A stretch of 42,261 nt of DNA. Origin: a virus (Duplodnaviria; Heunggongvirae; Uroviricota; Caudoviricetes). A program made the translations under genes and the position numbers. Below the pieces are notes generated by a model. It saw only the letters and a list, made by a program, of their open reading frames with translations, was not told the origin of the DNA and did not search any database. The stretch lies in IMG/VR virus record IMGVR_UViG_3300005918_000016; one strand, given 5' to 3'. Of the stretch, positions 2,293 to 31,107 are shown one piece after another (positions within the stretch are counted from its first letter, which is position 1; the number at the start of each line of letters is the position of its first letter).

Positions 2293-2531
2293 TCAGCTAC
2301 AGTGACCTTGAGGTGGGGATGCCTGTGCTGGTGCCTACACTGTGGGGGTACACCCTTGGGGTGGTCACGGAACTGACTGAGGATGGTGGTTACGCTCGGG
2401 ACTATGGCCACACTGAGGAGAAGCCGGGCAATCAGTACCTTCTAAGTTTTGCTCGGGATGGGTGGGACTGCTGGTCGTGTGGTTGTGCTATGAACCTGAG
2501 GGCTCTCAAGCGTCTGGGGGTAACCCGGTAG
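2226..2531 (+). CDS. Hypothetical protein (start uncertain)
   Basis: Protein-like segment DLEVGMPVLVPTLWGYTLGVV; no clear ATG. Confidence 0.4.
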   Translation: MDVGGEGWAALLPKGGQVKHHLISYSDLEVGMPVLVPTLWGYTLGVVTELTEDGGYARDYGHTEEKPGNQYLLSFARDGWDCWSCGCAMNLRALKRLGVTR

Positions 2532-2539
2532 CCTGTGGG

Positions 2540-2564
2540 GACCATCTGCTGACCCACAGAGTAG
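2540..2564 (+). promoter_or_regulatory. GACCAT-N13-GAGTAG box (variant)
   Basis: GACCAT 2540-2545, GAGTAG 2559-2564. Confidence 0.5.
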
Positions 2565-2930
2565 CTGAAGTGGGGAGAGTGGGGTGTCTTCCTCTAGATT
2601 CTGTGGCCTCCCTTTTGGGGCCTGTTCTTTTACTCTCCCTACAGGGTGTCCCAACTCATTCTGAGGTAGTGTTTATGCGGGTCTCCGAAAACGGGTGTGA
2701 AGCGGACGTTGGGCGTTTCATCTTGGTGAAAACGTCTGAGACGAGAGGGTGGGTGGTCACACTGTCCTACTTTGCGACACCTCTGTCGTGTTGTGGGGCG
2801 GGCTGCCCGAGCAATTGTCACTTAGAATCTCAGATGACCTGACGACTCATCCAACTGTGGCAGCCTGGTGGGTGTTACGTTGGCGTGGGTGGCGGTCTTA
2901 CGTTGTCGTAAGCTAAGAGGGGGCTGCCAG

Positions 2931-2956
2931 GATCATCTCACCGACCTGCGGAGTAG
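2931..2956 (+). promoter_or_regulatory. GATCAT-N14-GAGTAG box
   Basis: GATCAT 2931-2936, GAGTAG 2951-2956; about 30 nt before mini-element 1. Confidence 0.55.
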
Positions 2957-2985
2957 ACCTTGTGTAACGACCGCGACTAGGGGGG

Positions 2986-3334
2986 TACTTGACAGTGCCC
3001 TTCATACTTACTAAAGTCTAATTATTCCTGCTTGAAACAGGAAGCTGTTGTGGCAGGAAGGCTTACGCTGATTGGGTAGGAGGTTCTGGTGTGCCCAGAT
3101 GTTCTGGAGACGAACACATTGGTATTAACGATCATCCAAGAGGTGTAAAACGAGTGCTGGGAGAGCGATTCCGTCGAAGACGGACCAGTTCCTTGGGATT
3201 CGGGCGGAAGGAGCATCCGTCATCCGAGCCCTTACCGTTGGGCCGGAGGCTTACTACCGAGGCACTTGGGTCACCAAGGATCGGCACAGCCTCAAACTTG
3301 ATGCCTGTAGGTTTTAGCAGGTTTTGAGGAACGG
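2986..3334 (+). mobile_element. Non-autonomous IS607-derived mini-element 1 (promoter + tnpB 3' end/omegaRNA region + right end)
   Basis: 3046-3303 aligns without gaps to tnpB 19809-19552 (hand count about 47 mismatches in 258 nt). Ends TTTTGAGGAACGG like the full element's TTTTAAGGAACGG. Left flank ends in a G run. Confidence 0.85.
2989..3017 (+). promoter_or_regulatory. Sigma70-type promoter TTGACA-17-TAAAGT
   Basis: TTGACA 2989-2994, TAAAGT 3012-3017; both hexamers identical in the copy at 26679-26651. Confidence 0.75.
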
Positions 3335-3354
3335 TGTCCTGTTTCCCATTGTGA
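3024..3354 (+). ncRNA. Putative stand-alone TnpB omegaRNA/reRNA (scaffold to 3334, about 20-nt guide from the flank)
   Basis: 5' hairpin TTCCTG-N7-CAGGAA near the predicted start; compensatory pairs versus the tnpB copy in stems 3204-3220 and 3265-3278. Confidence 0.6.
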
Positions 3355-3601
3355 AGCCGTGCGGGGGGTAACGCAGCAAGCGTTGTTGTGGATGGACTGG
3401 CGCTGCGTGGCTGACTGATTCAAGGCGCAACCCTGAGTAGGTCTACGCAGTTGATGGTTCGGAAAGCAGAGACGTTAGCGGTTTCAGAAGGAGCGCAGTC
3501 TGGTGGCGTCTCCAACTTTAGTCTGTAGGAACGACGCCTAAAAACCAGCCCTACAGAGTGTCAAACTTCACTTATGAGTCTCAGACTACCAACCTTCGTG
3601 G

Positions 3602-3627
3602 GATCATCTCAGTACTCTACAGAGTAG
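3602..3627 (+). promoter_or_regulatory. GATCAT-N14-GAGTAG box
   Basis: GATCAT 3602-3607, GAGTAG 3622-3627; leads to the RBS and ATG at 3670. Confidence 0.65.
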
Positions 3628-3669
3628 TTAAAGTGAGGGGGGCAAATGACCCCCTGACAAGGAGACACC

Positions 3670-4086
3670 ATGGCGGTCAACAATGGAAACCCCTACCCTA
3701 CTTCAAGGCCCTTCCCCGCCAAGTTCCCAGGGACCTGTGATTGGTCCGGGACAAAGTATCGGAAGGGCGAGATCACACGGCGCATCATCGACCGCTACGA
3801 CGCCGACACCGACAGAGAAATCAACCCCCGCTATGTGCGGGAATGCTTCGTGAACATGGCATGTGACCCCACCTGGCGGCGACTGGATGAGAACTTCACC
3901 ATCGAGGGGATCCTAAAAGACCTGGTCCGGTTCATCCTCGTGGACAAGAACGGCAAGGTCAAGGGGCCGTACACCTACCGGGGCGAGCGGTTCGAAGTGC
4001 CTGGCTACACAGTACAGACCAGGAGCTGCGGACAGATGAAGCAGACGTTCACCGCTGCGGTGGCAGTGCAGGTACTGGAGGGCTGA
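3670..4086 (+). CDS. Hypothetical protein
   Basis: GGAG RBS; 138-aa ORF. Confidence 0.7.
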   Translation: MAVNNGNPYPTSRPFPAKFPGTCDWSGTKYRKGEITRRIIDRYDADTDREINPRYVRECFVNMACDPTWRRLDENFTIEGILKDLVRFILVDKNGKVKGPYTYRGERFEVPGYTVQTRSCGQMKQTFTAAVAVQVLEG

Positions 4087-4089
4087 GCG

Positions 4090-4269
4090 ATGAAAGCTGG
4101 GCACGATTGGAACTGGGTGGACCAGGAGGTTCGATATGCCTTCGGTGACCGGGACCGCCCCTACAGCATGGACGTCTGGGTATGCAAACGATGTGGGAAG
4201 GAAGTGAAAACCAGAGGATCGGGCAAAGGACCGAAGCCTGGAAAGTGCCCCGCTGCAAAGGGGGGCTGA
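4090..4269 (+). CDS. Small CxxC protein (59 aa)
   Basis: MKAGHDW...WVCKRCGKEVK...KCP; sits between neighbouring genes; below the ORF-track cutoff. Confidence 0.6.
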   Translation: MKAGHDWNWVDQEVRYAFGDRDRPYSMDVWVCKRCGKEVKTRGSGKGPKPGKCPAAKGG

Positions 4270-26543: not shown

Positions 26544-26682
26544 CTTTAATGTGTTCGTCCCCAGAACGTCTGAGCACACCAGAGCTTCCTACCCAATCAG
26601 CATGAGCCTTCCTACCGTAACAGCTTCCTGTTTCAAGCAGGAATAGTTAGACTTTAGTAAGTAAATCGGGTGCTGTCAAGTA
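26516..26682 (-). mobile_element. Truncated IS607-derived mini-element 2 (promoter + 5' half of the omegaRNA region)
   Basis: Homologous to 2986 through about 3153; TTGACA 26679-26674, TAAAGT 26656-26651, identical 19-nt hairpin; no right end. Confidence 0.85.
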
Positions 26683-26732
26683 CCCTTGCGGTGTCCTCTG
26701 AAAAATAATCTCGCTGGCTTTGAGCCACCTGA

Positions 26733-26941: not shown

Positions 26942-27127
26942 TCATCCTGTCATCAGTAACCGGACCAGTTCTAGTGGTCCGCAGTTCAGGCATTCCTTCA
27001 CCAGCTTGCGTCGAGGCTTGTAGTACAAGACGGACAGGCACCCGCAGCCAGGACACCGTTCCTTGGAAACGACACCCTGGTGGCCATCCACTGTGCGATG
27101 AAGGGATCCTGTGGGGTGGTTTTTCAT
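26942..27127 (-). CDS. Small zinc-ribbon protein
   Basis: CPGCG...ECLNCG; ATGA overlap. Confidence 0.55.
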   Translation of the reverse strand: MKNHPTGSLHRTVDGHQGVVSKERCPGCGCLSVLYYKPRRKLVKECLNCGPLELVRLLMTG

Positions 27128-29496: not shown

Positions 29497-31107
29497 ATGG
29501 AAAAGAAAATCGTTCAGGACGCAGTAGACGACGGACGGGTCATTCGTGCCGGGGGCTTCTCTTCCGTGGAGGGGAACAGTCCCAACCGGGTCTGTCGGGA
29601 CTTCGACGTGGCCATTCCTAACATTTACGGGACGGGTCTTGTTCAGGTGGAGCGTGCCCTGACGGAGACTGTGGACGCAAAGACGTTCGTCGGACGAGCG
29701 CTGTCCATCAAAACCCCTCAGATTCTTCGTGTGCATTTGGATTCGTGGGAGGAACCACAACGGAGGGAACAGGGGGCGGAGAAGATCCACTACGAACATC
29801 TGTCCCATCCTGAGATGGTAGACCTGATGTACCGTTCTCCTAAACTGACTCAATCAAGGACAAACCTTGACTGACGTTAGGTTCCTGCTTCACTGAGGAT
29901 AGTTTCACTTGGTCAAAAGGCACCAAGCCAGAGCTTTCCTCTCCACAGGCTGTAACCGAGGAACTCCCGGTCATTCACAATCGTTAAGACTGCTAAGTTC
30001 TTCAACGATTTGAGTTTTACAGTGAGGTCTCTCCTCACCAACCACCAAACCCAAAGTCCCAAAGAACATTTTGAAGAGCTTGGCTATCGCCCTTACGCTG
30101 AGTACAGTAAGAAGAGGGAGGATCAAGTCAAGGATTTTTGACCCCTCCCCGACGCAAAGAGTCCCTATTAAAGGCTGTTTTGAGCTACTGCTGGCAACCC
30201 TCCGAGCGGGCGCAGCCTCCTCTTCCACACCGTCCACACGGCATTCTCGGAACACTGGCCCATCGCCTTGTCTCCCGACGTCCTGATGTATCTTGTCCTT
30301 CATGAGGTGGCGATCACGGTCAAGCAAAATCCAGAGGACTACCGGGCGCTGTTCACGGCGTCGGATGAGAAGCAGCTTGTCCATGTTCGGCATGACCACC
30401 TGATCCTTGGATCTCCTTCCCCGTGGCACGAGATGATGGGTCTGTTCTACACAGCCCTGGCGGAACGGTGCCCGCAGGAAACAATGGATCAGATGTTCCC
30501 GACCTTCTCGACCCACACCGTGGCGTCGCAAGCGGGAACACTGGTGGCCTTCATGGATGCTGCCTCTCCCTTCTTCTCCTACCGCTGCACCACGAGGTGT
30601 GGCCTGCCCTCCATCAGACTCCTGGGTTGCCCAGAGGACTACCGAAAGCTGCTGCTGGCGAGCACAGAACTGGCCAAGATGTTCGACCCTCACCTGAAGG
30701 ATTATTTCGACCATCTCCTTCCTGTCCTGGCCACGATTGCAGCCCAGGCTGCGGGGGCACCCTACGACGAGGGCTTCTGGTCCTCCCTGTACAAGCACTT
30801 CTCTGGTTCGGGGACAGACGACATGACGGGCTGGATCTCAGCCTTCCTGAACTATGGTGACAAACAGGAGGGCCTTGTCCCGAAGGAGGGCAAGTTCTAC
30901 GACTGGAAGGCCACGATGGATCAGAGCGGTTGGAAGTCAGCTTTTCCCCGTGACGAGATCCCGGCACATGTCAGCCGGACGCCCTTCGTGTGGGACTATT
31001 ATGGCAAAGAAATGAAGATGGAACTCATCGGAGGTGTCCTGTCAGTCCAGAACATTGACGGTTTCCTGACACCCCAGCTTGGTTTCGGTATTATCCACGC
31101 TGATTAG
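29497..31107 (+). pseudogene. DUF4419-family gene interrupted by mini-element 3
   Basis: LLFHTVHTAFSEHWPIALSPDVL...TCGLPSIRLLG..EDY...TGWI motifs. Deleting 29832-30197 joins both halves in frame (DLMY-PPSGRSLLF). Confidence 0.75.
29832..30197 (-). mobile_element. Non-autonomous IS607-type mini-element 3 (different TnpB subfamily)
   Basis: Minus strand encodes the TnpB-tail peptide TGSSSVTACGEESSG...VKLSSVKQE; ends GGAGAACGG; ACC repeated at both junctions; TTGACT-16-TACTGT at 30131-30104. Confidence 0.8.

Follow-up and report, generated by a model that had tools for sequence, protein, structure and literature searches.

The 349-bp element S1 is probably a MITE-like, omegaRNA-only derivative of an IS607 transposon, served in trans by the TnpB and TnpA proteins of the phage that carries it. 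S1 occupies positions 2986-3334 of the window, by which we mean the whole 42,261-nt stretch of DNA analysed here; the window is the minus strand of positions 81880-124140 of an IMG/VR virus record of 188,175 bp (hereafter G000). CheckV puts the completeness of this record at 36%, which implies a whole phage genome of ~520 kb, and the reads of the phage come from salt-lake metagenomes. An earlier, sequence-only reading of the window had described S1 as a protein-less guide cassette that arose when the end of an IS607 element at 19519-21859 was fused behind a promoter. The bounds that it gave for both elements are exact, and a tnpB-less omegaRNA scaffold with its own promoter, the hexamers of which are conserved across copies, is well supported. 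The one-off fusion, however, gives way to a different picture: S1 is one copy of a MITE-like, probably mobile family, and promoter and hairpin together are the left end of that family.

Results

S1 is one copy of a family derived from IS607

The element matches nine places in the 188-kb G000 contig, which comprise full-length and truncated solos, a tnpB-only copy and full IS607 copies. The copies and genes referred to below are:

S1, window 2986-3334, + strand: solo of 349 bp (TAC...AACGG) with left end, promoter, hairpin, omegaRNA scaffold and right end
S2, G000 185644-185997: full-length solo homologous to S1, flanks unrelated
S3, G000 168264-168620: full-length solo homologous to S1, flanks unrelated
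S4, G000 1-240: solo homologous to S1, counted as full-length but cut by the contig start
S5, window 26516-26685, - strand: truncated solo that keeps left end, promoter and hairpin as well as ~110 nt from the start of the scaffold
B3, G000 132494-134008: tnpA-less tnpB element, left end with the same promoter and hairpin as the solos
IS1, window 19519-21859, - strand: complete IS607, omegaRNA overlapping the tnpB 3' end
IS1 tnpB, window 19543-20958, - strand: Pfam Cas12f1-like_TNB (1.3e-11) and OrfB_IS605
IS1 tnpA, window 20955-21584, - strand: Pfam Resolvase (5.9e-22) and HTH_17/MerR
IS1 small ORF, window 21574-21774, - strand
IS2, G000 152635-154989: complete IS607, 78% identity

More solos and tnpB-only copies are present in other IMG/VR contigs. 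By BLASTN, positions 3044-3335 (+) of the window align with 19811-19518 (-) at 81.1% identity (296 columns, 50 mismatches). The ~82% identity that had been counted by hand over the last ~290 nt is in keeping with this value, but the alignment is not gapless: it holds 3 small gaps, and a 2-3 nt indel of S1 relative to IS1 falls within the last hairpin loop. At the right end, homology to the autonomous copies reaches the final base (81-85% over 290 nt). S1 itself has no protein gene, the sole remaining frame being a remnant of the tnpB tail, and the parental IS607 carries, according to Pfam, a serine-recombinase TnpA (MerR-type HTH plus resolvase domain) together with TnpB. Pairwise differences among the copies amount to 9-19%, which argues against a recent burst of transposition.

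The left end carries a conserved promoter and a 5' hairpin

S1 and its immediate flanks hold the following features:

2930-2956, + strand: phage-specific promoter motif GGATCATC-N13-GAGTAG, separated from S1 by 29 nt
2982-2985, + strand: left flank GGGG, candidate TAM and TnpA target RGGG, including the GG recombination core
2989-3017, + strand: sigma70-type promoter TTGACA-17-TAAAGT within the left end, predicted start at ~3024
3025-3043, + strand: 5' hairpin TTCCTG-cttgaaa-CAGGAA, which precedes the RBS in the 5' UTR of the tnpB-only copy
3045-3334, + strand: omegaRNA scaffold, ending ...GGAACGG; its homologous counterpart is the final ~270 nt of tnpB together with the right end
3335-3354, + strand: predicted 20-nt guide TGTCCTGTTTCCCATTGTGA, the right flank of S1

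The promoter and the hairpin ahead of the scaffold were found where the sequence-only reading had placed them, and TTGACA-17-TAAAGT is the sole sigma70-like site across 2800-3700. In the window as a whole, TTGACA-N17-TAAAGT has two occurrences, one at 2989-3017 (+) and the other in S5 at 26679-26651 (-), where chance would give 0.02. Its -35 hexamer is unchanged in all nine solo or tnpB-only left ends read and its -10 hexamer in all seven solos, the two tnpB-only copies read at this position having TAAAAT and TAGAGA. The 17-nt spacer is variable and differs at up to 6 of its 17 positions. The stem of the 5' hairpin is kept in every copy, with wobble changes only.

B3 starts with the same GGGTACTTGACA...-10...hairpin series as the solos, followed by an RBS and the tnpB start codon, which shows that promoter and hairpin form the left end of a tnpB-only element as well as its 5' leader. 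In the solos, this layout lacks tnpB from just past the hairpin to ~270 nt before the stop. Their deletion junction (...CAGGRRG/CTGTT..., slashes marking junctions here and below) is common to S1, S2, S3, S5 and the solos of other IMG/VR contigs, and one junction amid unrelated flanks points to a single deletion event followed by spread. Compared with the full copies IS1 and IS2, the likeness of the solo left end is limited to ~16 nt (GGGTAYTTGA(A)CAG), and the -35 hexamer overlaps the terminal motif common to the full copies (TACTTGA-CAG vs TATTTGAACAG and TGCATGAGCAG). Because the likeness to the TnpA-encoding copies is this short, mobilisation of the solos by the TnpAs of IS1 and IS2 is putative.

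The predicted scaffold structure is conserved and probably under selection

We aligned 10 distinct copies (alignment A3: 5 solos, 3 tnpB-only and 2 full copies) and derived a consensus fold with RNAalifold, which has 88 pairs in 13 helices, 14 of the pairs showing double compensatory changes. In A3, 98.8% of the cells at these pairs are paired; none of 500 shuffles matched the pairing or the compensatory count, and sliding the partners by 1-3 columns lowered pairing to 32-48%. Both compensated stems noted from the sequence alone were borne out: in stem 3204-3220 a C-G pair of S1 stands for A-U in IS1 and an A-U pair for U-A, and in stem 3265-3278 C-G corresponds to U-A and U-A to A-U. S1 keeps 87 of the 88 pairs, the lone non-canonical cell being a G.A that is also found in a tnpB-linked copy, and its six private substitutions all lie in loops or yield G-U. 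Folded singly, the S1 transcript has a z score of -3.7. Conservation is highest in a 50-nt core (helices 7-8), where 3 of ~50 columns vary and every pair is kept, although elsewhere the 10 copies are just 81-91% alike.

The sequence-only reading had cautioned that the covariation might have accumulated while the segment was still inside a tnpB. This caveat is answered in part by the solos alone: 23 pairs vary among them, 102 of 104 cells remain canonical (31 of 5000 shuffles were as good), four double changes occur, and variable columns make up 15% of paired versus 25% of unpaired positions. What stands of it is gene conversion, as the copies are mosaic (S3 has helix 9 as in B3, and a tnpB-only copy has helix 12 of the solos), so that the solo structure may partly stem from conversion by tnpB-linked copies and not from selection in place. 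The third-position share of substitutions, 40% in solos vs 44% in tnpB-linked copies, does not separate coding from RNA constraint.

The window gave no Rfam match at the gathering threshold; in 2950-3400, a search at E<=10 gave no match to RAGATH-18, and only a chance-level L31-leader hit at E=2.6. A related arrangement is present in LR745208.1, an unrelated 485-kb uncultured huge phage with a TnpB of 46% amino acid identity to the G000 clade. Its loci L033-L036 comprise three tnpB copies and one tnpB-less copy with right ends CAACGG/T, the tnpB-less copy spanning the region of TnpB residues 384-479 (the C-terminal ~300 nt) plus the right end, with no recognisable left end or promoter. Adding these four copies to A3 raised the number of compensatory pairs to 27, which marks the region as a structured RNA that is conserved within the TnpB clade of these huge phages. 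An opposite-strand ORF at 3022-3216 (64 aa), considered as a gene of which S1 would be a part, was rejected as unsupported, the region being accounted for by the RNA.

Insertion junctions suggest a TAM-like flank and a guide

RGGG lies immediately 5' of the left end in all 10 copies with a left flank read, which fits the AGGG-type TAM proposed earlier (a predicted TAM). The right ends read AACGG in nine of the 10 compared and AATGG in one, followed by T in all. The flanks of the copies all differ, homology among the copies ends after AACGG, the next base being an invariant T, and the junction sequences read hold no duplicated target flank. These are ends of the IS607 type, with a GG core and a G-rich upstream flank but neither terminal inverted repeats nor a target-site duplication. 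The scaffold, for its part, has the layout of an omegaRNA: it shares sequence with the 3' end of tnpB, it reaches as far as the right-end boundary, and a flank that could serve as guide comes next. The earlier proposal that the guide is the right flank is supported for S1 by the stop of homology at AACGG, right before TGTCCTGTTTCCCATTGTGA. As judged by analogy with the junctions of an IS607 IStron (see Discussion), AGGG + TGTCCTG... is a reasonable target prediction, S1's own flank being GGGG.

The 188-kb contig contains no second site for the S1 guide (at least 14 of the first 16 bases), nor a match elsewhere to the guides of the other cassettes. Each cassette is a single scaffold with its own flank as guide, not a CRISPR array or a Cas12 guide locus. 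Empty-site alleles, which the sequence-only reading expected, were not encountered. Their predicted joint for S1, which is also that of a donor after excision, would read ...CTAGGGGGG/TGTCC...; no joint skipping 2986-3334 was present in contigs of four salt-lake metagenome runs over 2300-4100 (contigs drop rare variants), and exact-pattern scans for the empty junction and the right flank of S1 gave no match in JGI metagenome contigs or IMG/VR, from which records close to this genome may have been missing. In all four runs, contigs bridge both S1 junctions with 0 differences. IMG/VR held no relatives of the flanking proteins (2462-2842 and 3670-4086) and hence no orthologous uninserted locus for comparison, and no GenBank phage matched 2400-4200 by BLASTN.

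The contig encodes three TnpBs and two TnpAs

The single shared TnpB of the sequence-only reading is at odds with the contig, which by itself encodes three TnpBs, the other two (G000 132569-133975 and 152668-154074) being 80-81% identical in amino acid sequence to that of IS1. All three keep the RuvC D/E/D residues (RuvC-I GVDVG, RuvC-II VVEDL, RuvC-III AHAD) and the zinc ribbon CPSC..CxxC. Two cognate TnpA(Ser) genes are present as well. Akin to standalone omegaRNAs, S1 is thus protein-less, with effectors that have the RuvC triad encoded at other loci of the genome. Going by the common left end, a B-type TnpB is probably the natural partner of the solos. In B3 the tnpB has no stop inside the element, and its frame enters the right flank (the guide region) for ~9 extra codons (G000:133975-134040).

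Surroundings of S1 and decay of S5

The motif GGATCATC-N13-GAGTAG upstream of S1 is one of six in the window (at 800, 2930, 3601, 10139, 27874 and 32018), with 0 expected. Judging by the sequence, transcripts of S1 could start at its own host-type promoter or reach it by read-through from the motif at 2930-2956. Downstream, the copy at 3601-3627 is followed by a G/C leader hairpin, an RBS and the gene at 3670. In the 265 nt after S1, no + strand ORF of more than 25 aa starts before this promoter, and the fold of the region is unremarkable.

S5 aligns with S1 without gaps (2983-3152 (+) vs 26685-26516 (-), 85.9% identity). The second copy noted earlier at 26516-26682 does have identical hexamers and 6 of 17 spacer mismatches, but it lies on the minus strand, also includes ~110 nt of scaffold, and is truncated and guide-less. 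Homology stops at GTAAAACG, beyond which the sequence is antisense to the ORF at 26229-26543; lacking a right end, S5 cannot supply a guide, and it shows that solo elements can decay. Its intact promoter points antisense into that ORF, the last ~9 codons of which come from element-derived sequence.

Discussion

How S1 may have arisen and may act

The copies suggest the following course of events. A tnpA-less element of the order left end-promoter-hairpin-tnpB-right end lost tnpB up to its last ~270 nt by internal deletion, and the product then spread to at least five sites in the G000 phage and to others in contigs of related phages. Host RNA polymerase would start at ~3024 and read through the scaffold into the right flank, and the RNA would be trimmed to a ~300-nt omegaRNA with a terminal guide of ~20 nt (3335-3354). 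Loaded in trans onto one of the nuclease-competent phage TnpBs, this omegaRNA would direct cleavage of RGGG + TGTCCTG..., that is, of copies of the S1 locus without the element, which could stem from excision by TnpA or be present in a co-infecting relative. Recombinational repair after cutting would restore or spread the element, and the filled locus would be spared since its right end presents ACGG and not RGGG. A move to new RGGG/T sites would require the serine TnpA of the full copies.

This reading is favoured by the parallel between the RGGG and AACGG/T ends of the family and the TGGG target and TAM and UCGG scaffold end of the Clostridium botulinum IStron. It is weakened by the plain decay of S5, by the 9-19% divergence of the copies and by their mosaicism.

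The same biochemistry would hold if S1 were a domesticated guide cassette, i.e. a non-transposing, fixed and separately transcribed guide gene kept by the phage, and sequence alone does not separate this from maintenance as a transposon. Such a gene would suit the recovery of S1 with both junctions intact in four of four runs, the age of copies whose structure is nevertheless intact, the tnpB without tnpA that has the same promoter-bearing left end, and a solo left end unlike those linked to TnpA past ~16 nt. Yet the guide is a mere insertion flank that matches nothing else in the contig, and discrete ends, RGGG and AACGG/T junctions and many insertion sites are the signature of transposition, for which reasons we regard domestication as quite unlikely. 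We put just as little weight on the version in which the domesticated cassette, together with the promoter-driven, tnpA-less tnpB, would serve as a weapon with several guides, or as a gene drive, against co-infecting relatives without the insertion. Somewhat less doubtful, though still unlikely, is a distributed multi-guide TnpB, in which the tnpA-less tnpB and at least five dispersed cassettes on one host-type promoter would be expressed early and would cut or convert co-infecting relatives; if true, the phage would carry a gene drive or an exclusion system acting wherever relatives lack the inserts, and this system would be a living intermediate between a TnpB tied to its transposon and the guides of Cas12, which are encoded separately (e.g. 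CasPhi of huge phages).

S1 might instead be an inert relic, a decaying IS607 deletion remnant conserved by shared ancestry and gene conversion only. The truncated S5, the tnpB-less remnant of LR745208.1 with its unrecognisable left end and the gene conversion evident from the mosaic copies all speak for such a relic, but S1 has lost hardly a pair and its private substitutions are structure-neutral; the promoter hexamers of the solos are invariant despite the spacer changes, the core of helices 7-8 is near-invariant, and variation among the solos spares pairs, which together make a relic very unlikely. A role other than guiding strikes us as highly improbable. As a portable outward-reading promoter, S1 would profit from the lack of a predicted terminator between its promoter and the downstream region; the gene at 3670, however, has its own phage promoter and leader, and the intervening 265 nt have neither an ORF of the size sought nor an unusual fold. 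If S1 instead encoded a basic peptide of ~78 aa from ORF 3091-3327, which corresponds to the C-terminal tail of TnpB, it could draw on the tnpB frame, which is open in S1, S2, S3 and S6, and on the AGGAGG that lies 6 nt ahead of the ORF in the solos; the full-length solos have AGGAGG just before GTG, where the tnpB-linked copies and the truncated S5 have AGGAAG. Against this, substitutions show little third-position bias (80/69/98), the A-to-G change from AGGAAG to AGGAGG retains a G-U pair in helix 5, and the ORF has no Pfam match.

Relation to known systems

Read as a guide-only member of an IS607 family, S1 has close counterparts. Standalone, mobilised omegaRNAs that act in trans have already been published (Altae-Tran et al., 2021, as related in PMC10691335), and PMC10691335 states their biological role as unknown. 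S1 resembles these RNAs in being an apparently mobilised locus without effector or transposase, with effector-containing copies in the same genome and with action expected in trans; it differs in being of the IS607 (serine recombinase) kind, in being carried by a huge phage and in having its own sigma70-type left-end promoter, common to a tnpA-less tnpB copy. In Geobacillus stearothermophilus, protein-less PATE-like IS200/IS605 elements encode omegaRNAs (Meers et al., 2023, PMC10055086). These too are minimal and non-autonomous, keep both ends and the omegaRNA, and need TnpA and TnpB in trans, as S1 would, but they move as ssDNA by a Y1 HUH TnpA and have hairpin ends and AT-rich TAMs, whereas S1 has IS607-type ends with a GG core, no hairpin ends and a G-rich RGGG flank.

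The C. botulinum IS607 IStron (Zedaveinyte et al., 10.1101/2023.11.20.567912) offers the nearest parallel for the junctions. There, TGGG is the target of the serine TnpA, its GG being obligatory; the TAM of TnpB is the same TGGG; the scaffold ends in UCGG, which lets the filled site escape cleavage at position -3; TnpA acting in trans excises a gene-less mini-IS; and TnpB is active with a separately expressed omegaRNA. Both systems combine a serine TnpA and a TnpB with an NGGG motif as target and TAM, putatively so in the S1 family, and with an NCGG scaffold end that would spare the filled site. The S1 family lacks the group I intron, its RGGG TAM is a prediction, and S1 is natural where the protein-less mini-IS of C. 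botulinum is an engineered construct. IS607 TnpBs with RAGATH-18-derived reRNAs, such as ISFba1 (PMC11061315), are similar in their G-rich TAM (AGGAG or GAGGG), 20-nt guide and RuvC D/E/D; their whole reRNA follows the gene of a TnpB of ~390 aa, whereas in the S1 family the TnpB has 471 aa, its last ~90 codons are overlapped by the scaffold, and the scaffold has no Rfam RAGATH-18 match.

In light of these systems, S1 is probably a phage-borne IS607 version of the described standalone omegaRNA elements that would lend an extra guide to the phage TnpBs. It differs from them in its IS607 chemistry, its phage carrier and a left-end promoter common to guide-only and nuclease-only copies; the literature searched gave no published account of phage IS607 copies of these two kinds on one left-end promoter. 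The S1 family is a clean natural system for studying the role of standalone omegaRNAs. Its 10 copies directly display a TAM-like flank and a putatively self-protecting right end, and its promoter-plus-scaffold cassette is a compact unit for trans-guiding tests of IS607 TnpBs. If the cassettes act in trans, one TnpB would be re-targeted to many loci without gene duplication, the step needed from a transposon nuclease toward a guide-array system, and TnpB would be a homing or exclusion device between co-infecting phages; homing of this kind has been raised as a possibility in a 2026 review (PMC13565253).

Additional observations on the contig

Several further sequences resemble parts of the family. 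Four additional AGGAACGGT sites in the contig were rejected as copies, homology upstream of them being absent, and IMG/VR matches to the 18-nt left-end pattern in contigs L017-L019 were set aside as chance, their homology being limited to the pattern. The 15-mer AGGAACGGTGTCCTG at window 27049-27063 (-) consists of 9 nt identical to the close of the right end and 6 nt identical to the start of the S1 guide; homology is absent further upstream, and it is either chance or a relic. Window 29832-30197 (-) holds a second, unrelated mini-IS607 lineage (flank GGAGGG, end GAGAACGG/T) in which BLASTN found no similarity to S1.

The start of G000 falls within a solo (S4), and the 125-kb IMG/VR contig L015 matches G000 at 100% identity across S2 and its left flank (1276 nt), divergence beginning exactly at the final base of the S2 right end (from L015:1277 on and from G000:185643 downward); this reflects either recombination between copies or an assembly switch at the repeat.

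S2 is inserted in a degenerate type I-C-like CRISPR repeat (GTCGTATCCTTTGACAAAGGG / TATGTGGATTGAAAC; G000:C1:185600-188140, outside the window), ~1 kb from an array of 16 repeats, and its guide is the 3' half of the repeat. Array repeats with AGGG before TGCGTGGATTGAAAC mismatch the S2 guide at positions 2-3.
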